Positions 33,190-48,465 are shown, numbered from the stretch's first letter. The stretch: 64,000 nucleotides of DNA from Desulfomicrobium sp. (GCA_040768745.1 JAXGMI010000002.1:672001-736000), one strand, 5' to 3'. Numbers and translations are program-made. The notes: a model not told the origin generated them from the sequence alone.

Positions 33190-33774
33190 ATGCGCACAGC
33201 TATCTTCTGGCTCTGTTTACTGATTCTGCTGCCCACCGGCACGGCCTTGGCCCTGGAGGCTTCCGAGAGCCCCAACGCACATCCCCTGCCCGTCGGAAGC
33301 ACCATGCCTGACCTGCAGCTCATGGGCAAAATAAGTCCTGAACTCCTGGCCACCCTCGGTTTGCAGGGCAATGAGCCCTACCCGCTTTCGAACATCAAGG
33401 CCAAGACCATCATCCTCGTGGCATTCAGCATGTACTGCCCCCATTGCCAGCGCGAGGCCCCGGCCTTGAATGAGCTCTCCGCCCTGATCAAAACCAAGGG
33501 GCTGGACAAGGACATCAAAATGATCGGCGTCGGCATCGGCAACTCCGACTTCGAAGTGAACGTATTCCGTGAAAAATACGCCGTAACCTATCCGCTCTTT
33601 TCTGACCCGGACTTCGTCACCAACAAGGCCATAGGCGAAGTCGGCACACCCTATTTCTATGTGTTGAACATGGATCCCAAGAACAAGGAAATTAAGGTCG
33701 CTCACACCTTGCTCGGGCGCATGGAGTCGGTTGAAGGGTATCTGGACCAGGTCGTCAAGGTCAGCGCCAAATAG
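33190..33774 (+). CDS. Exported TlpA-like thioredoxin/redoxin
   Basis: Signal peptide, CPHC motif, cis-Pro GTP. Confidence 0.85.
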   Translation: MRTAIFWLCLLILLPTGTALALEASESPNAHPLPVGSTMPDLQLMGKISPELLATLGLQGNEPYPLSNIKAKTIILVAFSMYCPHCQREAPALNELSALIKTKGLDKDIKMIGVGIGNSDFEVNVFREKYAVTYPLFSDPDFVTNKAIGEVGTPYFYVLNMDPKNKEIKVAHTLLGRMESVEGYLDQVVKVSAK

Positions 33775-33784
33775 GGGATAGATC

Positions 33785-34378
33785 ATGAATCAGACAGTGC
33801 GCTTTTGTCTCATCTCCCTCCTCCTGATGATGCCTGCCCACGTCTTTGCGCAGGGTCCGTCCATCCCCAAGGAAAGGATCTTTCAGGTCGGCACGCTGAA
33901 GGCCCTGGACAGCACGCTGAAGGTCAAGGTCGGGGACCCTGCTCCGGATTTCTCCCTGCCGACCGTTGACGGGAAGCACCTCAGCCTGAGCCAGTTCAAA
34001 GGAAAGAAGAATGTCGTTTTGTCATTTGTTCCTGCAGCATGGACTCCGGTCTGCTCCGGGCAATGGCCCGGGTACAACATCGTGCAGGACATGTTTGAGC
34101 AGGCCGAGACGCAGCTCATCGGCGTGACAGTGGACAACGTGCCCACCCTGCATGCCTGGATCCAGGAAATGGGCGGAGTGTGGTTCCCTGTGGCCTCTGA
34201 TTTCTACCCCCACGGCAAGCTGGCCGGTGCCCTGGGCATCCTGCGCTCGACCGGCGAGGCCGAACGGTCGCTCTTTCTGATCGATAAGCAGGGCATCATC
34301 CGCTACATTGACGTGCATGACATCAACTCCAGGCCGGACCTGGGCCCCCTGATCAAGGCCATGCAGGCTTTGAAGTAA
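33785..34378 (+). CDS. Exported peroxiredoxin-like protein (AhpE-like)
   Basis: Signal peptide, [16 protein letters not shown] (PxxxTxxC), ERSLFLID. Confidence 0.85.
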
Positions 34379-34523: not shown

Positions 34524-34539
34524 CGGCAATTTTTTGCCG
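34524..34539. promoter_or_regulatory. Palindrome CGGCAA-N4-TTGCCG (copy 1)
   Basis: CGGCAATTTTTTGCCG, identical to 35774-35789. Confidence 0.6.
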
Positions 34540-34592: not shown

Positions 34593-35603
34593 TCAAGCCA
34601 GCTTCAGCTCATACTCGGCCAGCTTGTAGCGCAGGGTGCGGGGAGACACGGCCAGGATTTCAGCCAGTCTGGCCTTGCTGCCCTCGGCCTCGGACCACGC
34701 GCGGACGATGGCAGCCGCCTCGGCCTGGCGCACGGCTGCCTCCATGGTCAGGGCGCCGCGACCAGGATTCACGGCTGGCAGCCCCGTGGCCAGGCGCATT
34801 TCCAAGGGCAGGTGACAGGGCTCGATGACGGGCTCCGTGCACAGAAGGACAAGGCGCTCGGTAAGGTTGCGCAATTCCCGCACGTTCCCGGGCCAGGGAT
34901 AGGCGCACAGCGCACCCAGGGTGGCCGGTGAAAGGTGAACATCGGGCTTGTGATACCGATGGCGATACATGGCCAAAAAATATTCCGCCAGGGGAGGAAT
35001 GTCTTCGGGACGCTCGCGCAGGGGTTCCAGGGTGACGGGAATCACGTTCAGGCGGTAGTAGAGGTCTGCCCGGAATTCCCCGGCCGCGACCATTTTCTGC
35101 AGCACGCGGTTGGTCGCGGCCACGATGCGGGCGTCGAACGATTGCGTCCTTTCCCCTCCCAGCCTCCGAAAGGTCTTTTCTTCCAGGACACGCAGGAAGT
35201 CGACCTGATTGGGCAGGGGAATCTCTCCGACTTCGTCCAGGAACAGCGTTCCATCGGCGGCCAGTTCGAAGCTCCCCTTGCGTTGGCGCTGTGCACCTGT
35301 GAATGCGCCTGCTTCATGGCCGAAAAACTTGTCCGCGAAAAGCTCCCCCTTGAGCACGCCGCAGTTGACCGGGACAAACGGTTTGGCACGTCTCCCGGAA
35401 AGCTGGTGCACCAGGCGGGCGAAGAGCTCCTTGCCCGTTCCCGATTCTCCGTAGACCAGGATTGTGGCGTCGGAACCAGCAACCTGGACCGCCAGACGAT
35501 GAAGATCGCGCATGGCTTTGGACTGGTAAACGAATTCGCCGCTCCCCTCCTCGCTCCCCAGGGAAATGACCTCGGTTCTCGATGTCCATGTCGAGTCCGG
35601 CAA
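34593..35603 (-). CDS. Sigma54 enhancer-binding protein (AAA+ plus Fis HTH) with no sensory domain; DVU2956-like
   Basis: [38 protein letters not shown]-terminal HTH; start uncertain (TTG 35603 with AAGGA upstream chosen). Confidence 0.88.
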
Positions 35604-35613
35604 ATTATTGCCG
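35598..35613. promoter_or_regulatory. Palindrome CGGCAA-N4-TTGCCG (copy 2), at the regulator's 5' end
   Basis: CGGCAAATTATTGCCG. Confidence 0.6.
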
Positions 35614-35753
35614 ATCCTTGCAGCCACCTTCCCCGTGCCGACTGAATAAGAACCTACTGAGGGCTTCCGCGCCAAGAGAACTCCTTCTGCACATCCGGAT
35701 TGTTCTGCGTATCTCCCGACGGCGTCATGGGCCCGTCCACATCCCACCGAAAA

Positions 35754-35789
35754 AAGCACCATTTTGCCGGATGCGGCAATTTTTTGCCG
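35754..35789. promoter_or_regulatory. Tandem upstream activator sites (imperfect copy plus perfect copy 3)
   Basis: AAGCACCATTTTGCCG (35754-69) and CGGCAATTTTTTGCCG (35774-89), 20 bp apart, upstream of a -24/-12 box. Confidence 0.7.
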
Positions 35790-35842
35790 TCTACACCCTG
35801 GGCTTTGACACGTCAACCCGCACTTCACCTGCATCGACACGC

Positions 35843-35858
35843 TGGCATGCTCCTTGCC
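35843..35858 (+). promoter_or_regulatory. Sigma54 -24/-12 promoter of the tauE operon
   Basis: TGGCATGCTCCTTGCC, close to consensus TGGCAC-N5-TTGC. Confidence 0.8.
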
Positions 35859-35944
35859 CTATAGAGCGCGTATGAGGAACGTCCCAAGGTCATGGAGATA
35901 CATCAGGTAGGCAACGGAAACGTGTAAATGGGAGCGGAGCAGGA

Positions 35945-36937
35945 ATGAAACTGAATGCGAATGCGAAGTGGATGAGAATTCTGGGAGGCGCCGGCTTGGC
36001 TGTACTCCTGTTGGCGACACTGGCCTGGGCCAGCAATGAAGCAGGGATCGCGGGGGAGGCGGCCAAGCAAATGGCGGAAGCAACTGGCACCTTCTCATCC
36101 CTGCCCTGGTGGGCATGGCCCGCCATCTTGCTGGTCTTCTGTTTTGTGCTGGGCATCATCGCCGTCCTGGCCGGCGTGGGCGGGGGAGTGCTCTTCGTGC
36201 CCCTGGTCAGCGGCTTCTTTCCTTTTCACCTTGATTTTGTTCGCGGAGCGGGTCTGCTGGTGGCCCTGGCAGGCGCATTGGCCGCAGGGCCAGGCCTCTT
36301 GAAACGCAATCTGGCCAGCCTTCGTCTGGCCCTGCCCGTAGCCCTCATCGCCTCCAGCTGCGCCATCGTTGGAGCTTTCCTGGGCCTGGCCCTGCCTGGC
36401 AACGTCGTGCAGATCTGCCTGGGAGGCACCATCATGGGCATTGCCATCCTGCTGCTGACCTCCAAGAACACGGCCCGTCCTGTTGTCACCAAGCAGGATG
36501 CCCTGGGTCTGGCCCTGGGCATCCAGGGCGCATACATGGAAGCCAACGGCGAGATCGTCGAATGGAAGACCCACCGCACCCTGCCGGGCCTCCTGCTCTT
36601 CATCGTCATCGGCATCATGGCCGGCATGTTCGGCCTGGGGGCAGGTTGGGCCAACGTCCCGGTTTTGAACCTGCTCATGGGCGCACCGCTCAAGGTCGCC
36701 GTGGGCACCAGCAAGTTCCTCCTTTCCATCACCGACACTTCGGCCGCCTGGGTCTACCTGAACCAGGGCTGTGTCATCCCGCTCATGGCCATCCCGTCCA
36801 TCATCGGCCTGATGATGGGCTCCTTCGTGGGCGTGCGTCTGCTGGCCAAGGCCAAGCCGGCCTTCATCCGCTACATGGTCATCGGCGTCCTGCTTTTCGC
36901 GGGCGGCAAGGCCCTGGCCAAGGGTCTCGGCTTCTAA
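35945..36937 (+). CDS. TauE/SafE-family membrane protein
   Basis: LAGVGGGVLFVP, GMFGLGAGWANVP, AVGTS; N-terminal signal-like extension. Confidence 0.88.
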   Translation: MKLNANAKWMRILGGAGLAVLLLATLAWASNEAGIAGEAAKQMAEATGTFSSLPWWAWPAILLVFCFVLGIIAVLAGVGGGVLFVPLVSGFFPFHLDFVRGAGLLVALAGALAAGPGLLKRNLASLRLALPVALIASSCAIVGAFLGLALPGNVVQICLGGTIMGIAILLLTSKNTARPVVTKQDALGLALGIQGAYMEANGEIVEWKTHRTLPGLLLFIVIGIMAGMFGLGAGWANVPVLNLLMGAPLKVAVGTSKFLLSITDTSAAWVYLNQGCVIPLMAIPSIIGLMMGSFVGVRLLAKAKPAFIRYMVIGVLLFAGGKALAKGLGF

Positions 36938-36962
36938 CTATCAGCATCCAAGGAGAAAAAAC

Positions 36963-37382
36963 ATGCATAGACCCGAAACCAACGCCCCGGCCGAGCAGAT
37001 CACGTATGCCAACATACTTTTTTACGGATGTTGGGGTGGCTTGGCGCTCATGATTCTTACGTATATGCTGTATGTCACGGGCATCATGGAGCCCTATGTA
37101 TCCATGGAACTGGTAACCAGGTTCTGGTCCCTGCCGGTCCACAACTACCTGGCGGAAAACAACGTCCCAACGGGATGGGGTTGGGCGAGACTCCTCGGCA
37201 AGGGAGATTTCCTGAATTTCACAGGGATCGCGCTCCTGGGCGGACTGACCATTGTCTGCTACATCCCGGTCATCTTTGCCTATTTCAAGAAAAAGGACAT
37301 CCCCTATGCAATTATCGCGTTCCTTGAAGTCCTCGTGCTTTGCTTTGCCGCTTCTGGCATCGTCGGGGGCGGAGCCCACTAA
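36963..37382 (+). CDS. DUF1634-like membrane protein
   Basis: Three TM segments, GWGW...GDFLNF; typical partner of TauE. Confidence 0.75.
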   Translation: MHRPETNAPAEQITYANILFYGCWGGLALMILTYMLYVTGIMEPYVSMELVTRFWSLPVHNYLAENNVPTGWGWARLLGKGDFLNFTGIALLGGLTIVCYIPVIFAYFKKKDIPYAIIAFLEVLVLCFAASGIVGGGAH

Positions 37383-37393
37383 GGGAGTACATT

Positions 37394-38614
37394 GTGACGA
37401 AACGGTTTGAAGAACTGATCGGCTCCGACTGCCCGGACCTCCCGGCGTTGCTGGACAGCCTGCCCATGGGGATGGTTTTGCTCGATGGGCAGGGTCACGT
37501 GATCATGCTCAACAAAGCACTCGAGGAGCTGACCGGTTTTCATCGAGACGATGTTCGGGGTCTGCCCTGCCGGCATGTGTTGCGCAGCAGGGCCTGCGTG
37601 CAGGGCTGTCCCCATGAGCGCCCGGACGGTCCGGGCTCCAGCATCGAGACCGATTGCATCAACCGTCACCGCCGCAAGATTCCCGTTCGCATCACGCCAG
37701 TGCGCATGACAGACGACCAGAACCGCCCGGTCTGCATCCTTGACGTGGTGGAGGATCTGACCGCCCTGAAGGAAATGGCGGCCCGCCTGTCCCAGGTCAC
37801 TGGCCAGGGACAGATCGTTGGCCGCAGTCCGGCCATGGAAAAAATCCTGCGTCTGGTGCCTGTCCTCGCCCAGCACAGCTCCCCCGTGCTGATCACCGGA
37901 GAGACAGGGACAGGCAAAGACCTGCTCGCCGAGTCCATCCACAAGGCCTCGCCCAGATCCCGTGAACCCTTTGTCAGGTTCAGCTGCGGCCCCATGCCCT
38001 CGGAACTGCTGGACGCCGAACTCTTTGGTCGCGCACAGGGCGAAACCGGAGAGCTCAAACCCGGTCGATTTCAGCAGGCCCAGGGCGGCACCCTGTATCT
38101 TTCCGAAATCGCGGACCTGCCCTTGACCCAGCAGGCCAGCCTGGCCCGATTCCTCGACGACGGCATCATTCTCCCGGCCGGATCGGCCAAGCCCATCAGG
38201 GTCAACGTCCGGCTCATGGCTTCCACAGCCGGTTCTCCTGAAAAACTCGTACAGGAAGGCCGCTTGCGGGAGGATTTTTTCCACCGCATTACGGCCATCC
38301 GGCTGCACCTGCCCCGGCTCAAGGACCGCGGGGAAGACCTCGGCTTTCTGCTGCACCACTTTCTTGCCCACTATGCGGCACGGTTCAAGAAAAACATCAC
38401 CGGGATCTCGCCCAAAGCCCTGCGCCTGATCAGCTGTCACGACTTTCCCGGCAATGTGCGCGAGCTCAAAAACATCGTGGAATTCGCGGCCATGATCTGC
38501 ACCGAGGACACGATCCGGATCGAGCATCTCCCGGGGCATCTGCCGGGGATAGCCGACAAACCTGTACCGTCCACGCCATCGCAGACCCGCAAGGGCCTCC
38601 GCAAGAGCACATAG
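37394..38614 (+). CDS. PAS plus degenerate sigma54 AAA+ protein, no HTH (pseudo enhancer-binding protein)
   Basis: PAS with CRHVLRSRACVQGC; Walker A GETGTGKD intact; GAFTGA replaced by RAQGETGE; Walker B reads LYLSEI; ends without an HTH. Confidence 0.85.
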   Translation: MTKRFEELIGSDCPDLPALLDSLPMGMVLLDGQGHVIMLNKALEELTGFHRDDVRGLPCRHVLRSRACVQGCPHERPDGPGSSIETDCINRHRRKIPVRITPVRMTDDQNRPVCILDVVEDLTALKEMAARLSQVTGQGQIVGRSPAMEKILRLVPVLAQHSSPVLITGETGTGKDLLAESIHKASPRSREPFVRFSCGPMPSELLDAELFGRAQGETGELKPGRFQQAQGGTLYLSEIADLPLTQQASLARFLDDGIILPAGSAKPIRVNVRLMASTAGSPEKLVQEGRLREDFFHRITAIRLHLPRLKDRGEDLGFLLHHFLAHYAARFKKNITGISPKALRLISCHDFPGNVRELKNIVEFAAMICTEDTIRIEHLPGHLPGIADKPVPSTPSQTRKGLRKST

Positions 38615-38626
38615 GAGCATACATCC

Positions 38627-38980
38627 ATGGAACGCCGCGTTCTCATCACCGTCGCCAGGGACGAAGTCGCCCCTCGTTTCGACCTGGCCACCGAAGCCCT
38701 GCTCCTGACTGTTGCAGACAGCGGAGAGATCGTCTCCCGCAAATCATTCCTCATGGCCCACGCCTCGGGCGACGAGCTCTGCGACCTGGCCCTGTCCCGG
38801 GACATCGGCACCGTCGTGTGCGGGGGGATTGAGGACGAATATTTTCATTATCTGCGCTGGAAGCGGATCGAGGTCATCGACTCAGTCATGGGGCCCCTGG
38901 AACCCGTCGTGAGCCGGCTGGCAGCAGGCGCGCTCAGGGCCGGGGACATTCTCTTCGAACGGAGTGTGACGGGAGTATGA
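38627..38980 (+). CDS. NifB/NifX (MTH1175-like) small protein
   Basis: VAPRFD, VVCGGI. Confidence 0.75.
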   Translation: MERRVLITVARDEVAPRFDLATEALLLTVADSGEIVSRKSFLMAHASGDELCDLALSRDIGTVVCGGIEDEYFHYLRWKRIEVIDSVMGPLEPVVSRLAAGALRAGDILFERSVTGV

Positions 38981-40692
38981 AGAATATCCTGGCAGGCCCC
39001 ATGGACGCCATCAAGGCCGATCTGGCCACCGAAATCACGTCTCCCGACCGCTACAAGCTTTTGCAGCGCAAGATCGTTTTGCTCATGGCTCTGGTCACAC
39101 TTTTGCCGCTGCTCTCGCTGGCCGCCATCAACTATTACGAACACCAGAGCTCCATGTCGGCCGAAATCCAGGCCCCGCTGCGCGCGCTGGTGGGCAAGGC
39201 CAAGCACTCCTTCGAGCTGTTCCTGGCCGAACGGACCTCGGCCGTGAGCTTCATCGCTTCGGCCTATTCCTTTGAGGAGCTTTCGAACGACGCCAACCTG
39301 CAGCGCATCTTCCAGGTCATGCGCCGCGAGTTCACGGGGTTTGTGGATCTCGGCCTCATCGACACGCAGGGGAACCAGATCAGCTACGCCGGTCCCTACG
39401 ACCTGGCGGGCCGCAACTATGCTGAACAGGCATGGTTCCGTCAGGTCCAATTCAAGGGCGCATATGTCAGCGACGTGTTTCTTGGCTTCCGTCAATTTCC
39501 GCACGTGGTCATCGCCGTCCGCCACACCACAGAGAGCGGCAAGTCCTGGATCCTGCGCGCCACCCTGGACACCATGCATTTTGACCGCATCATCTCGGCC
39601 ATGGGACTGGAGCCCGGCAGCGATGCCTTTCTGGTCAACCGCCAAGGCGTGTTGCAGACAGAATCCCGCCAATATGGCCACGTGCTGGACGCGTTGCCCT
39701 TCTCCCTCCCCCCGACCAATTTCGAGGCCAACGCCCTGGCCATCCTCGACCCACAGGGTCGGGATATCTTTCTCGCCTCGGCCTTCATCGCGGACACGGA
39801 TTTTGCTCTGGTCGCCATCAAACCCAAGCCCACGATCCTGAGCACCTGGTACACGGTGCGGGCAGACCTGCTTTTCATCTTTGTCACTGGCGTCGCCGTC
39901 ATATTCCTGGCCGTCTACCGCCTTACCAGCGTGCTCATCAAGCGGCTGCAGGAGAGCGACGAGCAGCGCATGGGCGCCATCCATCAGATGGAGCATTCCC
40001 AGAAACTGTCATCCATCGGCCGCCTGGCTGCAGGGGTGGCCCACGAGATCAACAACCCCATCGCCATAATCAACGAGAAGGCAGGCCTCATGCGCGACAT
40101 TTTGAACATGAGGCCCGAGTTCCCGGACAAGGAGAAATTCATCAAGCAGATCGAAGCAATTCTCCGATCCGTGGACCGCTGCCGAGGCATCACACATCGC
40201 ATGCTCGGGTTTGCCAAACGCATGGACGTCAAGATCGAAGTCCTCGATCTCAACGCCGTGCTGTTGGAGACCCTGGGCTTTTTGGAACGCGAAGCCCAGT
40301 ACCGCAACGTGGAACTGCGGCACAATCTGGCCGAGAACCTGCAAGCCATCTCCACGGACCATGGCCAGATCCAGCAGGTTTTCCTGAACATCCTGAACAA
40401 CGCCCTGGCTGCGGTGCCTGACGGCGGAACCATCACCCTGACCAGCTGGGACAAGGACCAGAACTTTGTTGGCATCTCGGTGGAGGACAACGGTTGCGGC
40501 ATGTCCGAAGAAACCTGTAAACACATGTTTGAACCGTTCTTCACCACCAAGAAGGAAAAAGGGACGGGCCTGGGCATGTCCATCACCTACGGCATTGTCA
40601 AACGCCTGGGTGGTGACATTCAGGTCAAAAGCAAACTTGGCGAAGGGACCACGATCACCATCATGCTCCCCAAAAAGCCAGTGGAAGGATAG
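38977..40692 (+). CDS. Membrane sensor histidine kinase with Cache-like domain
   Basis: Two TM segments, H-box AHEINNP, N-box NILNNA, DNGCG, FEPFFTTK, GTGLG. Confidence 0.94.
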   Translation: MKNILAGPMDAIKADLATEITSPDRYKLLQRKIVLLMALVTLLPLLSLAAINYYEHQSSMSAEIQAPLRALVGKAKHSFELFLAERTSAVSFIASAYSFEELSNDANLQRIFQVMRREFTGFVDLGLIDTQGNQISYAGPYDLAGRNYAEQAWFRQVQFKGAYVSDVFLGFRQFPHVVIAVRHTTESGKSWILRATLDTMHFDRIISAMGLEPGSDAFLVNRQGVLQTESRQYGHVLDALPFSLPPTNFEANALAILDPQGRDIFLASAFIADTDFALVAIKPKPTILSTWYTVRADLLFIFVTGVAVIFLAVYRLTSVLIKRLQESDEQRMGAIHQMEHSQKLSSIGRLAAGVAHEINNPIAIINEKAGLMRDILNMRPEFPDKEKFIKQIEAILRSVDRCRGITHRMLGFAKRMDVKIEVLDLNAVLLETLGFLEREAQYRNVELRHNLAENLQAISTDHGQIQQVFLNILNNALAAVPDGGTITLTSWDKDQNFVGISVEDNGCGMSEETCKHMFEPFFTTKKEKGTGLGMSITYGIVKRLGGDIQVKSKLGEGTTITIMLPKKPVEG

Positions 40693-40697
40693 ACATT

Positions 40698-41090
40698 ATG
40701 GACATGAGCACGTGGAACATCCTGCTGGTGGACGACGAGGTCGAATTCATCACTACCCTGGCCGAGCGTCTGGAACTGCGCGGCATCAACGCCAGGGTCA
40801 CCCATGACGGAGAATCGGCCCTCAAGGAAGTGGCTGTGAACGAACCCCAGGTCATCGTTCTGGACGTGATGATGCCGGGCATGAAGGGACTCGAAGTCCT
40901 GCAACGGGTCAAGGAAGCCCACCCCAAGGTGCAGGTCGTCCTCCTCACCGGCCAGGGCAAGACCAGGGACGGCATCGAAGGCATGCAGCATGGCGCGTTT
41001 GCCTATCTGATGAAGCCCCTTGACCTGGAAGAACTCATTCATACCCTGAAGGACGCCCTCCAGTCCGGACGAGGAAACCGCCATGACTGA
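40698..41090 (+). CDS. Single-domain response regulator
   Basis: LLVDDE, LDVMMPG, LTG, KP. Confidence 0.93.
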   Translation: MDMSTWNILLVDDEVEFITTLAERLELRGINARVTHDGESALKEVAVNEPQVIVLDVMMPGMKGLEVLQRVKEAHPKVQVVLLTGQGKTRDGIEGMQHGAFAYLMKPLDLEELIHTLKDALQSGRGNRHD

Positions 41091-41709
41091 TATCGCGGGC
41101 GAAGCCAGATTTATGGGTGCGGTCACGGCCCTGACCATGCATGAAATGCAGAACATCCTGGCCATCATCCGGGAATCGGCCGGACTCATGGGCGACATCC
41201 TGAAGGTCAATGCCAGGGTGGACTTCAAGCATCGGCCAAACATGGAGCGCACCCTTGAACACATCACGACCCATGTGGAGCGCGGCAAGGGGCTGTTGGA
41301 GGCCACCAGCCGGCTGGCCCACTCCCCGGACGACGACATGCTGGACAGTTGCGACCTGGCAGTCCATGCCCGGGTGGTGGCCCTCCTGTCCGAACGGCTG
41401 GTCCGCCTCAAGGGAGCGTCCGTGAACTTCACCCCTGTTCCCGCGCCCCTGCCCGTGGCAGTGGGTGCCCTGCGCGTGCTCATGATCGGCTACCAGTCCG
41501 TGCAATGGGCCGTGGGATCAGGCACAAAGGATGGGCACGTCAAGGTGGAACTGGAGCCAGGCCAGGACTTCCACATCATGACCGTGGTCCCTCCCCAAGG
41601 AGTCACTCCCGATGCCAAGGCACTGGACTGCATCCGCAAACTCCTCGATGATGGCCGCCTGGAATGGGACGGAAGAATGCTGCGCATCTTTTTCCCGGTG
41701 CGGAAGTAA
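41083..41709 (+). CDS. Histidine-kinase-like protein with H-box but degenerate ATP-binding domain (possible phosphotransferase)
   Basis: MHEMQNILAIIRESAGLM resembles HEINNPIAIINEKAGLM of the upstream kinase; no N, G1, F or G2 boxes. Confidence 0.65.
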   Translation: MTDIAGEARFMGAVTALTMHEMQNILAIIRESAGLMGDILKVNARVDFKHRPNMERTLEHITTHVERGKGLLEATSRLAHSPDDDMLDSCDLAVHARVVALLSERLVRLKGASVNFTPVPAPLPVAVGALRVLMIGYQSVQWAVGSGTKDGHVKVELEPGQDFHIMTVVPPQGVTPDAKALDCIRKLLDDGRLEWDGRMLRIFFPVRK

Positions 41710-41716
41710 GGGTGTC

Positions 41717-42097
41717 ATGGACGCCATCAATGTTCTCCTGATCGACGACGAAGAGGCCTTCGTCACCACCTTGCAGGAAAGACTTGAACTGCGGGGACTC
41801 AATGCTCGGGTGGCCCTTGACGGCAGGACCGGTCTGCAGATGATCGAAGCCGATCCCCCGGACGTGGTTGTCCTGGATCTGCGCATGCCGGGCATAAGCG
41901 GCACCGATGTCCTGCGGCGGATCCGCGCCCAGTGGCCCGGCATGCCCGTCATCATGCTCAGCGGGCATGGGTCTGACCAGGACTTCGAGTCTTGCATGAA
42001 CCTGGGAGCATCTGTCTATCACAAAAAACCGCTGGACATTGCCGTCCTGCTGGAAAGCATCCTGTCCGTGGTTCAGGGCCCGGTTCCAACCCTCTGA
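41717..42097 (+). CDS. Single-domain response regulator
   Basis: LLIDDE, LDLRMPG, LSGHG, KP. Confidence 0.92.
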   Translation: MDAINVLLIDDEEAFVTTLQERLELRGLNARVALDGRTGLQMIEADPPDVVVLDLRMPGISGTDVLRRIRAQWPGMPVIMLSGHGSDQDFESCMNLGASVYHKKPLDIAVLLESILSVVQGPVPTL

Positions 42098-42104
42098 GGT
42101 TCCC

Positions 42105-43244
42105 ATGGTCAATGTCCTAGTCGTTGATGACGAGCGGGATTTCGCCGACATTCTGTCCCAGCGACTCCAGGCGCGCGGCCTTGATGTGCGTGTCGCCTAC
42201 AGTGGGCAGGAAGCCCTGGATCAGACACGGCACATTCCGCCCGACGTGGTTGTTCTGGATGTGACCATGCCTGGCATAAGCGGACTGGACACCCTGGAGG
42301 AATTGAAGAGGATCAGCCCCCGCACCGAGATCATCCTGCTCACGGCTGATTCCACCGTAGGTACGGCCGTGAGCGGCATGAAGCTTGGCGCCGGAGACTA
42401 CCTGATCAAACCGGCCGATATCGACACCCTGGTCGCGGCCATTGGCGAGGCCGAGACACGTCGCATGGATGGATTGTCCCGGCAGCGCATGGCCGAAACC
42501 GCCAAGCTGGCCGCCCTGGGCGAACTGGCCACGGGTGTGGCCCATGAAATCAACAATCCCCTGCATGTCATGGTCAACGAGGTGGGCTGGATCGGAGAGC
42601 TTCTGGAAGAAGCCGGGATCGAAAAAAAACTGGGTGAGGAAATCCGTCAAGCCCTCCATCTGATCCGCCATCAGGCCCAACGCTGCAAGGCCATCACCTC
42701 GAAGCTGCTGACCTTGCGCCCGGTCCGGAATTCGCGGGCGTCCCTGACCACGCTCCCGTCGCTGGTCAGAGTCATCCTGGACCGGCGCAGGGACAGAATT
42801 GACGGTCTGGGGGTCACCACCCATGAGGCGTGGGGATCAGATCTGGGCCACGTTCCGGTCCCCGAGTCGGAATGGGAGCAGATCCTGGCCAACGTCATTG
42901 ACAACGCCCTGGATGCCATGGAGCAGGGAGGGGGAAACCTGCGCCTGCTCGGAGAGACCCAGGGACACGAATTGGTTGTGTCTGTCGGGGATTCGGGCTG
43001 TGGCATCGAAGCCCATCTGCTGACACGAATTTTTGAGCCCTTTTTCTCCACCAAGGACGTGGGCAAGGGCATCGGATTGGGGCTGGCAATCTGCCACAGC
43101 ATCATCGAGTCCATGGGAGGAACCATTTCCGTGCGCAGCTCGCCCGGAAACGGTTCGACCTTCACCATACGGGTGCCCGTGGCCATGCATGCGCAAAACG
43201 AACACACCAGGCCGGAACATCCGGCGTCTTCCAAGGAGGAGTGA
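42105..43244 (+). CDS. Receiver-histidine kinase hybrid
   Basis: N-terminal REC (VVDDE, LDVTMPG, KP), then AHEINNP, NALDA, DSGCG, GIGLGL. Confidence 0.92.
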   Translation: MVNVLVVDDERDFADILSQRLQARGLDVRVAYSGQEALDQTRHIPPDVVVLDVTMPGISGLDTLEELKRISPRTEIILLTADSTVGTAVSGMKLGAGDYLIKPADIDTLVAAIGEAETRRMDGLSRQRMAETAKLAALGELATGVAHEINNPLHVMVNEVGWIGELLEEAGIEKKLGEEIRQALHLIRHQAQRCKAITSKLLTLRPVRNSRASLTTLPSLVRVILDRRRDRIDGLGVTTHEAWGSDLGHVPVPESEWEQILANVIDNALDAMEQGGGNLRLLGETQGHELVVSVGDSGCGIEAHLLTRIFEPFFSTKDVGKGIGLGLAICHSIIESMGGTISVRSSPGNGSTFTIRVPVAMHAQNEHTRPEHPASSKEE

Positions 43245-43246
43245 AC

Positions 43247-43666
43247 ATGAACAAGATGAAGCTGCTGATCGTGGACGATGAGAAGGATCTGTGTCGTATT
43301 CTCGCGGACCGCTTGAATATTTTGTACGGCATCACCCCGGACATGGCCCACACGGGCGATGATGCCCTGGAGATGGTGAAGAAGAAAAACTACGATGTCG
43401 TGGTCCTGGACATCGAAATGCCCGGCATCGACGGCATCGAAACCCTGAAGCGAATCAAGGAGATCAACCCCAAGATCCAGGTCGTGCTCTTCACCGGACA
43501 CGGCAGCGACGAAACTCGCCGCATGGGTGAAGTCCTGGGCGCATTCAGCTACGTGGACAAGATCGACGGCCTGCCCAAACTGGCCCCCATGATCGAAGGC
43601 GCCTTCCGCCTGCGCAAGGTGCTGGAAGACACCTACGCCGACGCGGCCCTGAACGAGTACAATTGA
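43247..43666 (+). CDS. Single-domain response regulator
   Basis: LIVDDE, LDIEMPG, FTGHG; AGGAGG RBS. Confidence 0.9.
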   Translation: MNKMKLLIVDDEKDLCRILADRLNILYGITPDMAHTGDDALEMVKKKNYDVVVLDIEMPGIDGIETLKRIKEINPKIQVVLFTGHGSDETRRMGEVLGAFSYVDKIDGLPKLAPMIEGAFRLRKVLEDTYADAALNEYN

Positions 43667-43898: not shown

Positions 43899-44258
43899 CT
43901 AACCCTGACCCAGCAGCAGGCAAAGCCTGTCCATGGTTTTGATCCCGCTTTCGCGTCCGGGGTGTTCCGGCACTGAGCAGAGTACGCCCAGGCCCTCGCT
44001 GTCCTCGTGGAATGTCTCCTCGTCCATATCCGTGACGACCACCGTGTTGAGCATGGCGTTGACGCGCAGAAGATCCATCAGGAAGGACTTGTAATCCAAT
44101 CCCGGCGTCATGGCGTCGACCACGACGAGCTTCCAGGGCCTGCTTCCCGCCCGGCTCAGGACTCCGCCTGCGTCGGCGGTCCACTCGACGTCGGCTCCCA
44201 GGCCCTGCGCAAAATCCAGCAGGGCTTCCTTCCGGCCGGTGACAATGACCACCTCCAT
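43899..44258 (-). CDS. Receiver-like protein of the orp cluster (DVU2105-like)
   Basis: LVVVD, VNAMLNTVVVT, FHEDSEGLGVL; last gene of the cluster. Confidence 0.7.
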   Translation of the reverse strand: MEVVIVTGRKEALLDFAQGLGADVEWTADAGGVLSRAGSRPWKLVVVDAMTPGLDYKSFLMDLLRVNAMLNTVVVTDMDEETFHEDSEGLGVLCSVPEHPGRESGIKTMDRLCLLLGQG

Positions 44259-44330
44259 GTCTCCTCCTCGGTTGTGTGCGTGAAAAGGCCGGGTCCGCCG
44301 CGCACTGACGAACCAGGCCAGGGAGGATGG

Positions 44331-44708
44331 CTAGTGCCCGCCGCCGCAGGTGTATTCCTGGGTGAAGCGGACCAGTGCCCCTTTCAGCAGGGCCTCGACA
44401 GCCGTGCCCACATTGGGGGCGCCGGCGCCATAGAAGACGTCGATGCCCACCTGATTGAAGCCCATCAGCGGCCGCATGCCCATGCCGCCGGCGATGAGCA
44501 GGTTGACGCCGTTCTGGGCCAGGTGTTGGACCGGGGCCATGCAGCCGCCCTGCTGGTGGGGCACGTTGGGCAGGGTGCTGACCTGGGACACTGACCCGTT
44601 CTCCACGTCGATGATGGTGTACAGGTCGCAGTGCCCGAAATGGGCGCCGACTTCCGCTTCAAGTCCGCCAGGCAGGGCCGAGGGGACGGCGATTCTGAAC
44701 TTTTCCAT
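44331..44708 (-). CDS. NifB/NifX-family protein
   Basis: IAVPS, AHFGHC, HQQGGC, AGGMGMRP, C-terminal CGGGH. Confidence 0.88.
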   Translation of the reverse strand: MEKFRIAVPSALPGGLEAEVGAHFGHCDLYTIIDVENGSVSQVSTLPNVPHQQGGCMAPVQHLAQNGVNLLIAGGMGMRPLMGFNQVGIDVFYGAGAPNVGTAVEALLKGALVRFTQEYTCGGGH

Positions 44709-44736
44709 GATGCTTCGATCTCCTTGTACGAAACGC

Positions 44737-45609
44737 TTATGATTGCAAAAGATCCATAATCCTGTGCCACGCATCCCGAATGTTCCGGGCGATCTCGCTA
44801 TCGGGGCCCTCGGTGACCGCCTGCCGGCGGACCATGGCCTCGGTGACCGCCGTGTCGTGGGGCAGACGGGCCAGCAGGACATAACCCTTTTCGGCGCACA
44901 TGGCATCTATTCGACCTGTATGCTCGGGATTGAGGTCGTGCTTGTTGACGATGACCGCGACCCTGGTGCGGAAATGCTCGCACAGGCTGGCGACCCGCTC
45001 CAGGTCGTGCACCCCTGAGGGCGTCGGCTCCGTGACGACCACGGCCAGGTCCGTCTGCGAGAGGGAGGCGATGACCGGGCAGCCGATGCCCGGTGCGCCG
45101 TCGCAGAGGATCAGACCCAGGCCGCGCTCCTCGGCCAGGGCGCGGGCCTCCTTCTTGAGGCGGGAAACCAGAAGCCCCGAGTTCTCCTGCCCCGCGAAGA
45201 GTTGGGCGTGGACCATGGGCCCGAAGCGGGTGTCGCTCAGGTAACGCTGCCCACAGTGCCGATCCGGGAAGTCGATGGCCTGCTCCGGACAAAAGGCCAC
45301 ACAGACCTTGCAGCCCTCGCAGCGCAGGGGGGCGACGCGGTAGACGTCCCCGTCCGGCTCGATGGCTTCGTACCGGCACATGGAGGCGCACAGGCCGCAG
45401 GCCGTGCATCTGTCGGAGTTGATGACCGCCTCGTGACCGGAAATGAAGGCCTCTTCCCGGACCACGGACGGGTCCAGCAGCAGATGCAGGTCGGGGGCGT
45501 CCACATCCAGATCGCAGATGACCCTGTTTGCGGCCAGATGGGCGAAGGCCGCGGTGATGGACGTCTTGCCCGTGCCGCCCTTGCCGCTGATGACGACGAT
45601 CTCACGCAT
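44737..45609 (-). CDS. MinD/ParA-type ATPase with 2x[4Fe-4S] insert (ORP complex)
   Basis: SGKGGTGKT, DLDVDAPDLHL, two CxxCxxC motifs, PGIGCP, VTEPT. Confidence 0.92.
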   Translation of the reverse strand: MREIVVISGKGGTGKTSITAAFAHLAANRVICDLDVDAPDLHLLLDPSVVREEAFISGHEAVINSDRCTACGLCASMCRYEAIEPDGDVYRVAPLRCEGCKVCVAFCPEQAIDFPDRHCGQRYLSDTRFGPMVHAQLFAGQENSGLLVSRLKKEARALAEERGLGLILCDGAPGIGCPVIASLSQTDLAVVVTEPTPSGVHDLERVASLCEHFRTRVAVIVNKHDLNPEHTGRIDAMCAEKGYVLLARLPHDTAVTEAMVRRQAVTEGPDSEIARNIRDAWHRIMDLLQS

Positions 45610-46471
45610 GCTCGTCCTCCTTGCCCATGGCCATCAGCTTCGCGGCCAGGCCGGCAAACAGCTGACCAAGACCTCGATCCATCTCGGCCAGCACGAGACC
45701 CCTGGAATAGTGTTCGGCGATGTCCCGGCGGTAGGGGATCTCGGCCAGGATGGGTAGCCCGTGGGCCGCGCAGAATCCGTAGACCCGGTCGTCGCCCAGG
45801 CCGGCTCGATTGAGGACCACGGCCATGGGTGTGCCGAAGGGCTCGAAGGCCTCCCAGGCGAGCTTGAAATCGTGGAACCCGAAGGGGGTGGGCTCGGTCA
45901 CGAGGACGATGACGTCGCTGTCGGTCACTGCGCTCATGGCCGGGCAGCTCACGCCGGGAGGCGCGTCGACGAGCACGTCTAGACCCTTCTCCCTGCTCTC
46001 GGCCCGCATGTGCGCACGCACGACGCGCATGAGCGGGGGGCTCATGGCCTCGCCCACGCGCAGCCGCCCGGTCATGCAGGGAATCCGCCCGCGCGAGACG
46101 CCGGACTCCATGACGCCGAGTTCGCGCGTGGCCGTGCCGATGGCCCCTTCGGGGCAGATGGCCATGCACCCGCCGCACCCGTGGCACATCTCGGGAAAGG
46201 TCATGATGGCCTTGCCCATGACAGCGATGGCCTTGAACTGGCACAGCTCCGCGCACTTGCGGCAGAAGGTGCATTTGGACTCGTCCACGTCGGGAACCTC
46301 GAGGGTCACGACCTCGGTCCTCGACACGTCGGGCTTCAGGAACAGGTGCAGGTTCGGCTCCTCCACATCCAGGTCCACGGCCATCAGAGGTCTGGGCCAG
46401 GCCACCGCGAGGGACGCGGTGACCGTGGTCTTGCCCGTGCCGCCCTTGCCGCTGGCAACGGATACGATCAT
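45602..46471 (-). CDS. MinD/ParA-type ATPase with 2x[4Fe-4S] insert (ORP complex paralogue)
   Basis: ASGKGGTGKTT, DVEEPNLHL, two CxxCxxC motifs, PPGVSCP, VTEPTPFG. Confidence 0.92.
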   Translation of the reverse strand: MIVSVASGKGGTGKTTVTASLAVAWPRPLMAVDLDVEEPNLHLFLKPDVSRTEVVTLEVPDVDESKCTFCRKCAELCQFKAIAVMGKAIMTFPEMCHGCGGCMAICPEGAIGTATRELGVMESGVSRGRIPCMTGRLRVGEAMSPPLMRVVRAHMRAESREKGLDVLVDAPPGVSCPAMSAVTDSDVIVLVTEPTPFGFHDFKLAWEAFEPFGTPMAVVLNRAGLGDDRVYGFCAAHGLPILAEIPYRRDIAEHYSRGLVLAEMDRGLGQLFAGLAAKLMAMGKEDEHA

Positions 46472-46479
46472 GGCATCAC

Positions 46480-47172
46480 CTATCTGTTGGGGGCGTCGGT
46501 GTACTCGACCTTGCCCGCCTTGAAAGCCTCCACCGCCTGGGCCACGGTCATCCCGCCCATGTTGTGGCCGATCTTCACCCCACCGCCCTTGAGGGCCGCG
46601 AAGGCCTTGGGGCCAACGCTGCCGGTCAGCAGCACCGAGGCCCCGGCGTTGATGATGTTCTCGGCCGCCTGGATGCCTGCCCCGTGGGACAGGGCCTGGG
46701 AACCGCCGTTGTCGACATAGGTCGAGGCCATGGTGTCGAGGTCCACGACGATGAAGCCGGCGGCGCGGCCGAAACGGGGATCCACGCGGTCCGTCATGTT
46801 CGGGCCCTCGCTGGTGATGGCGATCTTGGTCATACTAAGCTCCTTGCTGCGGGCCGCGGAACGGTCCGGATATTGGTGCATGCACGGCGTCTGGGCATCG
46901 TGGGCGATGTACAGAGCCAACCCGTCCACGAGAGACCGCGCCACGGCCCGGCGGGCGTCGCCGAGAATGCGGCCGAAGGTGTGCCGGGACACATGCATGC
47001 GGGCGGCCCCCTCTGCGGCGGTCAGGCCGTGATAGTCGGCCAGGCGCAGGGCCTCGAACCCGTCCATGGTCATGTAGACCTCGGCCAGTTCCTGCAGGGG
47101 AATGCCCTGGGGCTTGAAAAAGCGCGCCCTGGGGCATCCTTCGATCCGGCGGCATTTCCTGGGTCTCGGCAC
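46480..47172 (-). CDS. DUF134 HTH domain fused in frame to an orange-protein (MTH1175/NifX-like) domain
   Basis: PRPRKCR, FKPQGIP, EALRLAD, VSRHTFGRIL, then MTKIAITS..VDPRFGRA..HGAGIQAA; internal AAGGAG plus ATG at 46833. Confidence 0.85.
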   Translation of the reverse strand: MPRPRKCRRIEGCPRARFFKPQGIPLQELAEVYMTMDGFEALRLADYHGLTAAEGAARMHVSRHTFGRILGDARRAVARSLVDGLALYIAHDAQTPCMHQYPDRSAARSKELSMTKIAITSEGPNMTDRVDPRFGRAAGFIVVDLDTMASTYVDNGGSQALSHGAGIQAAENIINAGASVLLTGSVGPKAFAALKGGGVKIGHNMGGMTVAQAVEAFKAGKVEYTDAPNR

Positions 47173-47200
47173 GCCTCCTCCTTTTTGCTCAAATGAGCGC

Positions 47201-47437
47201 TTATTCCTCGGATTTCCTAGTGTCAACACCCGGAGCGGGATTTCCCGGGGCCGTCACGTCGTCCACGCACGAACCGTCCCGCCGCGTGCGCCTCAGGCCT
47301 CCTCCGCCACGGCCGCCGCTGCCTGCGCCGGCTCCGACGCCTGTCCGCTGCCCGCGGCAGCCTCCGCCGCCCTGGCCGCGACCCGCTCCGCCCTGGCCAC
47401 GTCCACCTCTGCCACCTTGTCCTGATCGACCCGGCAT
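47201..47437 (-). CDS. Small Gly/Arg-rich protein (DUF5320-like)
   Basis: GGAGG RBS; MPGRSGQGGRGG...; small Gly-rich genes occur in orp-type clusters. Confidence 0.6.
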   Translation of the reverse strand: MPGRSGQGGRGGRGQGGAGRGQGGGGCRGQRTGVGAGAGSGGRGGGGLRRTRRDGSCVDDVTAPGNPAPGVDTRKSEE

Positions 47438-47811
47438 GTTCGCCCTCCTTGCTGTTTATGCGCACCGGAGACCCGGCCCTGGCCGCGGCCCTGGCACGCC
47501 ATGTTTGTCTTGTCCTGGCTTTTGACCTCCGGCGAATCCATCTCGATCCGGATGGCCCACCCCCTGGAAAGGGCACGGGCCACCTTGGCCCTGGCCCGCC
47601 CCAGGATGCGGCACAAGGTGGGACGGGATACCTGCATGAGCGTGGCCGCATCTTCCTGGTTCAACCCCTCGGCGTCGACCAGACGCATGGCCTCAAGTTC
47701 ATCCAGGAGCAGGGCCACGCCCTGCAGTTGGGTCATGGGCACCCCTTGAGGCTTGAACACAGTCACCTCCGGTGCCATGGACACGATCCGGCATTTTCTA
47801 CGTCTTCCCAC
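47293..47811 (-). CDS. DUF134 domain protein
   Basis: GRRRKCR, FKPQGVP, ELEAMRLVD, MQVSRPTLCRIL; GTG start with GGAGG. Confidence 0.85.
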   Translation of the reverse strand: MGRRRKCRIVSMAPEVTVFKPQGVPMTQLQGVALLLDELEAMRLVDAEGLNQEDAATLMQVSRPTLCRILGRARAKVARALSRGWAIRIEMDSPEVKSQDKTNMACQGRGQGRVSGAHKQQGGRTCRVDQDKVAEVDVARAERVAARAAEAAAGSGQASEPAQAAAAVAEEA

Positions 47812-47822
47812 GCCGCCTCCAA

Positions 47823-47865
47823 TTGAAATTATGTTCAAAATATAGTCTCCACACCATCCTGTCAA
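47823..47865 (-). promoter_or_regulatory. Sigma70-like promoter with overlapping palindrome, upstream of the orp cluster
   Basis: TTGACA (47865-60), 17-bp spacer, TATTTT (47842-37); palindrome TTGAACATAATTTCAA (47838-23). Confidence 0.6.
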
Positions 47866-48009
47866 TACCCTGTCCGCATATTCTCGAGGCCCCCCTGCCG
47901 CGTGCCCAAAAAGATGAAAGGCCCAGGAAATCATCACAAGCTTGTGCTGGATTTGCGGACGGGACATTGGTAGCTGTAGGGTATTCTCCACCCAACATCT
48001 GGAGGTTGC

Positions 48010-48465
48010 ATGGATCCTCAGTATTGGCATTGGCTTGTCTTCGGCATGGCGCTCATCATTGCCGAGCTGTTTGTGCCGAGCTTCACCATCTTCTGGTTCG
48101 GCCTGGGTGCCCTGGCCGTGGGCGGACTGATCTGGCTCACTCCGACCTTGAGCCTGACCACGCAGCTCCTGCTCTGGGCTCTGTTTTCCGCCATGCTGAC
48201 GGCCTTCTGGTTTTTGGTCATGAAGCCTCGCATGGTGGACAAGACCCGGGCCGGCATGTCCAGAGAGGCGCTGTTGGGGGAGGTCGGTCAGGTCATCCGC
48301 GTGCCCGACGGCGAACGCCGCGGCCTGGTCCGCTTCACCAAGCCTCTCCTGGGATCGGACGAATGGTCCTTTATCTGCGACGAGCCTGTTCGTGTGGGTG
48401 ACCGGGTCCAGATCCGGGACGTGTCAGGCAACACCCTGGTCGTCGCAACCAAAACCAACAAATAA
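48010..48465 (+). CDS. NfeD-family membrane protein
   Basis: WLVFG..AEL..P.F..WFG; C-terminal OB fold ending VSGNTLVV. Confidence 0.9.
   Translation: MDPQYWHWLVFGMALIIAELFVPSFTIFWFGLGALAVGGLIWLTPTLSLTTQLLLWALFSAMLTAFWFLVMKPRMVDKTRAGMSREALLGEVGQVIRVPDGERRGLVRFTKPLLGSDEWSFICDEPVRVGDRVQIRDVSGNTLVVATKTNK

Follow-up and report, generated by a model that had tools for sequence, protein, structure and literature searches.

The closest described counterpart of the locus studied here is DVU2956-DVU2964 of D. vulgaris Hildenborough, in which a sensorless sigma54 activator, DVU2956, lies divergent to a sigma54-dependent operon with a TSUP transporter and a second, doubtful enhancer-binding protein (EBP), DVU2960. 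Three conserved half-sites of that locus were bound by DVU2956 in an electrophoretic mobility shift assay, DVU2960 did not bind the promoter, and an unknown partner was suggested for sensorless EBPs (Kazakov 2015, PMC4641369). We analysed a 64,000-nucleotide (nt) stretch of Desulfomicrobium sp. DNA (GCA_040768745.1, JAXGMI010000002.1:672001-736000; hereafter the window), in which a sensorless sigma54 activator (ACT) on the minus strand, with its stop at 34593, faces an operon that encodes a PAS-AAA+ pseudo-activator (PSE, 37394-38614). A first-pass annotation of the window had noted a likeness to the DVU2956 locus, and this was borne out by the gene order, the three half-sites and a GAFPGA orthologue with a helix-turn-helix (HTH), as the paper describes them; the loci were matched through that description rather than through DVU sequences by name. 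DVU2960 keeps GAFPGA and the HTH, which is the state of 8 of the 60 loci compared below, whereas the PSE of the window has lost both the loop and the HTH. In the available text of PMC4641369, DVU2960 is treated without being proposed as the partner, and without a Cys motif, a Walker B change or a NifX-like gene.

Several other bacterial enhancer-binding proteins (bEBPs) show part of this arrangement. In Rhodobacter sphaeroides, the sensorless FleQ turns on an operon with an HTH-less second bEBP, FleT, and the two act together; unlike PSE, which has a PAS sensor and no sigma54 loop, FleT lacks an N-terminal domain and is needed for activation (PMC10084136, PMC9542535, PMC7277832). HrpR and HrpS of Pseudomonas syringae are unequal subunits under trans control, one of them tolerant of Walker B changes, but both have an HTH and a required GAFTGA Thr, neither has a sensor, and their inhibitor HrpV is not a bEBP (PMC3105312). 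RedR1/RedR2 and VnfA1/VnfA3/VnfZ provide paralogous bEBP hetero-oligomers, in which inactive subunits may silence, and a small co-transcribed modulator, yet all are complete, with sensor, loop and HTH (PMC10084136, PMC9542535). PspF is likewise a sensorless activator, held in check by a protein that its target operon encodes (PMC4641369, PMC3105312); this protein, PspA, is unrelated to bEBPs, whereas PSE would itself be a bEBP, disabled and equipped with a sensor. OrpR (DVU2106) shares with PSE a PAS domain with C-X8-C-X3-C, which is negative-acting and holds a redox-sensitive [4Fe-4S] cluster. It differs in being a complete one-component activator with Walker B DE and a proposed fourth ligand, Asp/Glu, where PSE has His, and the available text describes no NifX-like PAS partner for it (PMC8359166).

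The first-pass annotation knew of no description of its proposed mechanism for this locus. No paper that puts forward the mechanism considered below, or a PAS-NifX complex, was found in the literature covered, outside which most subscription papers and supplements lie; the locus itself had already been published together with the suggested unknown partner (PMC4641369).

PSE and ACT across the Desulfovibrionales

PSE (plus strand, DVU2960 type) consists of a PAS domain (residues 16-123) and an AAA+ domain of the bEBP type (PF00158, 160 bits), which in the structure model folds like NtrC1/PspF. The model had a predicted local distance difference test (pLDDT) value of 87.8, with both domains folded. 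Walker A (GETGTGKD), REDFFHR and sensor II are retained, and the PAS domain carries C59-X8-C68-X3-C72 (37568-37609, plus strand), the predicted Fe-S ligands by likeness to OrpR. In place of GAFTGA there is a shortened loop, ELFGRAQGETGE (38018-38053), Walker B reads LYLSEI (38093-38110), and Pfam detected no HTH_8 in the protein. A frameshifted, hidden HTH was rejected; the PSE stop lies 12 nt ahead of the next gene, so that no HTH is concealed in another frame. This combination of retained and missing motifs is what the first-pass annotation had listed for the protein.

The census of related loci was anchored on the NifX-like gene that follows PSE and not on the counted trait. A match was found in 159 of the 301 genomes of the class, and the loci comprised 100 of the 150 listed NifX-like matches plus 20 regions chosen to complete the ACT-positive genomes; the fragmented ACT-positive genome G282 lay outside the inspected set. 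Loci with a divergent ACT were designated class A (59 genomes and the window, 15 genus labels), and the 56 loci without an adjoining ACT class B. Of the 61 Desulfovibrionales genomes inspected that have an ACT orthologue, 60 carried PSE and the NifX-like gene in the divergent operon; the co-occurrence that had been expected was therefore observed, as one clade and one event. The GAFTGA Thr was found in none of the class A proteins (0/60): eight had GAFPGA and two a GAxPW-type loop by pattern, and the others had no recognisable loop. An HTH was present in 8/60 and absent in 52/60, and every one of the 52 HTH-less forms adjoins ACT. The PSE frame was open in 59/59 class A loci across the 15 genus labels. 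Among the best 119 of 4816 PSE homologues at E 1e-40 (the best 120 with PSE itself, a set biased toward the query), no GAFTGA-type motif, Walker B Asp or Pfam HTH_8 was found, and CX8CX3C occurred in 105.

The residues retained in the PSE orthologues (n=60) point to nucleotide binding, with Walker A Lys and sensor II Arg invariant (60 each); full RxDxxxR was kept in 51, switch Asn in 31 and the complete three-Cys motif in 51. RxDxxxR, switch Asn and catalytic Glu stood together in 19/60 PSE proteins versus 55/56 proteins of the intact family described below. We take switch Asn64 and sensor I to be the corresponding PspF names. The names R162, D164, R168, D107 and E108 are those of PMC3419264, in which PspF substituted at residues of the RxDxxxR, Asn and Glu types retains at most 5% of its ATPase. 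PSE thus appears to be disabled, and what marks it is the loop, the HTH and the drifting coupling residues rather than Walker B. Over 13 same-genus sequences, dN/dS was 0.116 in the AAA+ domain of PSE, 0.171 in the PSE PAS domain and 0.55 in the PSE tail; in the ACT AAA+ domain it was 0.053. PSE is under purifying selection, stronger on AAA+ than on PAS, and its dN/dS of 0.12-0.17 is similar to that of its operon neighbours. Strain-specific decay, against which the first-pass annotation had set its reading, is ruled out by the conserved losses, the retained frames and this selection.

The PSE CX8CX3C aligns with that of an OrpR-like paralogue of the same genome, which is the nearest PSE paralogue there (251 bits) and belongs to the sister group in trees. 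By analogy with OrpR, an Fe-S cluster is predicted in the PAS domain of PSE. The OrpR-like activator is encoded elsewhere in the genome (G000 C2:843468-844844).

ACT (34593-35675, minus strand) is an AAA+ protein with a Fis HTH, of the DVU2956 type. Walker A GESGTGKE lies at 35450-35427, GAFTGA at 35309-35292 and Walker B LFLDEV at 35246-35229, all on the minus strand; RxDxxxR, sensor II and Pfam HTH_8 (E 7e-8) are also present, and Pfam found no input domain in the protein. The motif and Pfam checks agreed with the earlier description in content and placement. The boundary, given earlier as 34593-35603, was revised: the start is probably TTG 35675 (360 aa), as AAGGAG lies upstream of it and the homologues are mostly of 340-365 aa. 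No sensor Pfam domain occurred among the 120 best homologues of the ACT loop region (searched lengths 198-630), and the 59 complete ACT orthologues all retained GAFTGA/GAYTGA, Walker B DE, switch Asn and RxDxxxR. A separate observation concerns the residues just ahead of the GAFTGA loop, where LFADKFFGH (about 35345-35319, minus strand) is exact in 57/59 ACT orthologues; most bEBPs of the genome have LxESELFG there, a charge reversal, and the motif is gone from the degenerate ACT of locus L181 (see below).

Between ACT and the divergent operon lie an upstream activator sequence of three half-sites, TTGCCG / CGGCAA / TTGCCG (35764-35789), and a sigma54 -24/-12 promoter, TGGCATGCTCCTTGCC (35843-35858, plus strand; own consensus score, without shuffle control). 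This arrangement suggests that ACT likely drives the operon from the 35843 promoter. The palindrome CGGCAA-N4-TTGCCG, a predicted ACT site, recurs directly past the ACT stop (34524-34539) and, as a predicted autoregulatory site, within the ACT 5' coding region (35598-35613); three of the five exact copies in the genome are at the ACT locus. It was present in 57/59 class A loci versus 8/59 other loci, and at most 300 nt from the ACT stop in 17/54 loci versus 5/2360 control windows. The intragenic copy was in frame in 54/58 orthologues, and its Leu codon was TTG in 51/54 compared with 191/2161 in the gene body. A conserved N-terminal GKxLP peptide of ACT was set aside as a protein motif, since the DNA palindrome explains it better. 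The copies within the coding region and past the stop suggest autorepression or looping.

Intact relatives and the order of losses

An intact PAS(CX8CX3C)-AAA+-HTH family with Walker A GKD, Walker B TE and GAFTGA was found in loci L120-L180 and L228-L256, nearly always followed by a NifX-like gene. The 56 class B proteins have Walker A GKD in 56, GAFTGA or GAYTGA in 54, an HTH in 56 and the three Cys in 54. Sensor I is His in 48/56, with trans residues changed; switch Asn is kept in 55, catalytic Glu in 56 and RxDxxxR in 56. In a second sample (301 genomes around another handle, of which 39 matched the NifX-like profile and 38 loci were taken), 26/26 GKD/TE proteins, picked by that pattern, retain GAFTGA, 24 the HTH pattern and 21 the Cys motif. 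Class B has its own TGTTTCA-type repeats and, in 32/56 loci, a sigma54 site downstream of the NifX-like gene (own score at least 10, without shuffle control), the promoter often standing ahead of receiver, CBS and DASS transporter genes. This family was also considered as the ohc regulator DVU3142 and rejected in that role, as no ohc genes were seen among 49 scanned neighbours.

The first-pass annotation had counted the altered Walker B among the defects of PSE. The loss is indeed conserved (Asp in 0/60), but it is inherited from the wider family, in which the position is Thr in 53/56 and Asp in 0/56 together with GAFTGA and an HTH. As the Asp is missing from the intact family too, the D-to-S change of PSE is no sign of ATPase death, and Walker B Ser was rejected as stand-alone proof of a dead ATPase. 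An Asp-less Walker B would be compatible with a seemingly working activator. PspF D107A retains 0.6% of its ATPase (PMC3419264), which implies that the class B site may be rewired or that a partner helps. Among 150 representatives, a non-Asp Walker B went with GKD (12) or GKG (2) and never with GKE, save for single Asp-Asp and Asn-Asp oddities; a strict residue swap between Walker A and Walker B is suggestive only, as GKD also occurs with DE (12). The CX8CX3C PAS domain was found in 53/97 canonical related activators.

Trees were built from the AAA+ core (FastTree) and from PAS plus AAA+ (IQ-TREE quick mode, 67 chosen rows, rooted on OrpR-like proteins). Class A formed one clade inside class B (100 in the Shimodaira-Hasegawa-like approximate likelihood ratio test, SH-aLRT), the lineage with GAFPGA and an HTH was sister to all HTH-less forms (SH-aLRT 99), and ACT also formed one clade. 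A cassette of bEBP, NifX-like, kinase, receiver and kinase-like genes was found without ACT inside and outside the order. A sigma54 site follows the kinase-like gene in 12/13 ACT-less cassettes versus 0/59 ACT-linked ones, and three scanned ACT-less TauE cassettes (L135, L237, L238) had no head-of-operon sigma54 site. A query with the ACT tail gave no match at the level of orthologues in the principal genera of class B (0/22 in g19; only E >1e-6 in g13). The alignments and trees show the descent of PSE from an intact one-component family (PAS-Cys, GAFTGA, HTH, GKD, TE) that travels with the NifX-like gene; the PSE lineage lost the GAFTGA Thr first and the HTH afterwards, and the internal sigma54 promoter is gone where ACT joined. 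It appears that control passed to ACT and a new head promoter, and that the old activator was retained in a disarmed form.

The sole exception in the census is L181, where ACT is present and PSE and the NifX-like gene are both missing. This ACT (L181:3106-4122) has lost the GAFTGA Thr, the Walker B Asp and the switch Asn and has kept the HTH and the half-sites. No sigma54 site scoring at least 7.5 was found at L181, nor were further relatives of this degenerate activator, which possibly turned repressor. L236 has kept the operon with the NifX-like gene and has no PSE, ACT or sigma54 site; a PSE-family match lies elsewhere in its genome.

The NifX-like gene and the surrounding operon

The gene after PSE (38627-38980, plus strand), which the first-pass annotation had omitted, encodes a NifB/NifX (Di-Nase, MTH1175-like) small protein and belongs to the PSE unit. 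Its profile matches were MJ0327, 1rdu and PH0822 (E 4e-7 to 2e-4), and Pfam gave 25.0 bits against a cut-off of 26.3. A PAS-bEBP lies directly upstream of this gene in 115/118 loci, with none in the other three. In the window genome the PSE-linked NifX-like family has one member, and there is no intact TE activator. A natural PSE-NifX fusion was also sought; the one match, P0282, is a frameshift artefact, and the search is weak evidence of absence. In L257-L265, canonical OrpR-like activators (GAFTDA, Walker B DE, CX8CX3C) stand beside more distant NifX-like genes, and the pairing may thus predate the TE family.

This pair was picked for modelling as two bEBP domains tend to pass through their likeness to solved rings. 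The complex of PSE and the NifX-like protein scored 0.83 compared with 0.00 for the best control; the mark applied was reached by 116/157 solved and 2/215 mismatched pairs and is a rough guide here, where our own alignments were used and a 4Fe-4S ligand was carried along. Contacts agreed between runs by at least 87%, with a partner pLDDT of at least 87. The interface joins the Cys region of the PSE PAS domain (H61, R64, C68, R91-K95) with P16-R17-D19, G66-E69 and D85-G89 of the NifX-like protein, on the most conserved face of the latter. Interface columns were more conserved than the remaining ones in both NifX-like protein (0.67 vs 0.53, p 0.01) and PAS domain (0.61 vs 0.50, p 0.05), as computed on the same alignments as the complex model. 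The prediction is therefore that the NifX-like protein binds the PAS domain of PSE at its Cys motif; the model is uninformative on the cluster itself, as the ligand was unscored. We know of no solved PAS-NifX complex.

The operon opens with a TauE/TSUP-family transporter of the DVU2958 type (35945-36937, plus strand; Pfam TauE E 2e-34), labelled a putative sulfur-oxyanion transporter on the basis of the treatment of DVU2958 in PMC5840216. It continues with a small membrane protein without a Pfam or NCBIfam match (36963-37382, plus strand), which follows TauE in every class A locus, then with PSE and the NifX-like gene. The remainder (38977-43666, plus strand) comprises a Cache histidine kinase, a receiver, a kinase-like protein, a receiver, a receiver-kinase hybrid and a receiver. 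A protein at 41083-41709 (plus strand) has no Pfam or NCBIfam match and an H-box-like stretch that resembles the adjacent kinases; its position is kept in class A and in many class B cassettes, and it is a possible phosphotransfer protein. Two tandem thioredoxin-fold genes (AhpC/TSA and redoxin; 33190-34378, plus strand) end just before the ACT downstream site, an arrangement found only in several same-genus loci. An orp-like operon (43899-48030, minus strand), with two MinD-type P-loop proteins with ferredoxin motifs, a NifX-like gene and DUF134, converges on the PSE operon. The closest named relatives, among the matches listed, were Desulfomicrobium records. RNA-library contigs from two digester studies overlap parts of ACT and PSE and are uninformative on transcription or its level.

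Possible roles of the pseudo-activator

We favour, tentatively and at somewhat less than an even chance, a role for PSE in trans as a redox-gated brake on ACT that gives negative feedback. The first-pass annotation had inferred co-assembly of PSE with ACT and redox sensing or inhibition in trans, a reading that our results support in part; among possible partners of PSE, a complex model favours the NifX-like protein. ACT, with every catalytic and DNA-binding motif and no sensor, would act through the conserved site cluster and the sigma54 promoter that head the operon. PSE and the NifX-like protein would form the predicted sensor unit; the PSE AAA+ domain, nucleotide-binding yet drifting catalytically, would dock on the ACT ring or mix into it. 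PSE would then lower ACT activity according to the cluster state, with negative feedback on the operon of the putative sulfur-oxyanion transporter and phosphorelay. A brake is preferred because a sensorless activator needs an input, and the sensor-bearing ancestor was kept where its own output was lost; because the PSE AAA+ domain is conserved for nucleotide binding and not for catalysis; and because related PAS domains have a negative effect and a ring can be silenced by inactive subunits. The OrpR PAS domain needs the Cys of CX8CX3C for its negative action (PMC8359166), and in RedR inactive subunits silence active ones (PMC10084136, PMC9542535). The drift of catalytic and trans residues, taken with the low ATPase of the substituted PspF proteins, suits a brake better than a working subunit.

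Several observations weigh against this proposal. The single class A clade means that the co-occurrence is one event with long retention and not a set of independent repeats. In the class B loci L174 and L180, which lack ACT, GAFTGA was independently lost (NALPG) with the HTH kept, so that loop loss does not require ACT; in neither locus does a sigma54 site follow the NifX-like gene. L181 is a single draft genome, and its deletion also removed the kinase sensor domain. ACT and PSE share only 35% identity. The OrpR-type Cys motif of the first-pass annotation aligns with the OrpR-like paralogue, but at least one of the three Cys is missing in 9/60 PSE orthologues, and 57/60 have His two residues past the first Cys (His61 in PSE) in place of the OrpR fourth-ligand Asp/Glu. 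His is able to ligate clusters. Zhu and colleagues are said to have reported in 2019 that DVU2960 production cut biofilm as DVU2956 did, which misfits a plain inhibitor. PspF rings into which loop-mutant subunits had been mixed still showed 55% activity (PMC3467059), which means that mixing does not necessarily silence.

It is unlikely, in our estimate, that the predicted sensor unit of PSE and the NifX-like protein signals to the operon kinases and receivers, or to another target, instead of ACT. ACT would then merely have replaced the old activator and be controlled by its own autoregulatory sites or by something else. The five-gene cassette predates ACT and occurs without it, the NifX-like protein is the only predicted partner of PSE, and the extra ACT sites in and after the ACT gene suffice for self-limiting expression. 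Signalling of this kind would, however, leave the sensorless activator without an input and the tighter conservation of the nucleotide-binding AAA+ domain than of PAS unexplained, and the intact family functions at loci that lack the kinase cassette as well.

A role as co-activator, with PSE mixing into ACT hetero-hexamers in the FleQ/FleT style and giving positive feedback, is distinctly unlikely. PSE would supply the sensor and trans arginines, and ACT the DNA binding and sigma54 loops. FleT itself retains GAFTGA. The gene logic is the same as in FleQ/FleT, where a first activator turns on an operon with an HTH-less second one; RxDxxxR is intact in the window PSE and in 51/60; ACT decayed in L181, where PSE is absent; and a Walker-B-defective PspF complements a trans-defective one (PMC3419264). 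The biofilm effect that Zhu and colleagues reportedly saw with DVU2960 would also fit a co-activator. On the other hand, RxDxxxR is broken in 9/60 PSE proteins on more than one branch, HrpR and HrpS each require the GAFTGA Thr (PMC3105312), and each of the 59/59 complete ACT orthologues has its own complete active site.

Highly improbable is a decoy or sink, in which PSE would titrate the NifX-like protein, Fe-S or ATP from OrpR or the intact TE family, or store a cluster, without acting on ACT directly. Related activators often have CX8CX3C PAS domains (53/97 canonical), OrpR-like activators of L257-L265 adjoin NifX-like genes, Di-Nase domains bind metal-sulfur clusters, and a minor OrpR chromatin immunoprecipitation peak is described at this intergenic region, without an expression effect. 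Against this, the window genome has a single such NifX-like gene and no intact TE activator, and a sink needs no conserved AAA+ domain. That PSE is a slowly decaying relic without current function is hardly credible: catalytic residues and loop drift and its branches are longer than those of the intact family, but the frame is open in 59/59 class A loci, dN/dS is 0.12-0.17 like that of operon neighbours, Walker A Lys and sensor II Arg are invariant, and the model is folded.

Building on the brake, a wider history is possible, which we would sooner doubt than hold. An ancestral Fe-S/PAS activator, its ATPase site rewired to Walker A Asp and Walker B Thr and its cluster under a NifX-like cap, would have become a dedicated pseudo-enzyme sensor of redox or metal-sulfur status, gating a recruited ACT for the sulfate-type transport of sulfate reducers in a three-protein sigma54 switch of a new build; NifX-like proteins would be general partners of Fe-S PAS activators, OrpR included.

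The steps of the change are still visible, from GAFTGA through GAFPGA to loss of the loop, with HTH loss and a moved promoter. The intact TE family poses the question of how a bEBP functions without the Walker B aspartate, and the predicted PAS-NifX-like complex gives a testable function for a widespread uncharacterised family. PSE is also a testable candidate for the DVU2956 partner left open by the 2015 regulon paper (PMC4641369), and a review links DVU2956, in an organism that serves as a corrosion-relevant model, with biofilm and the output of sulfide. The partners in known heteromeric sigma54 activators are complete or sensorless; if the proposal is true, a conserved sensor-only pseudo-activator would be a new input-output wiring.

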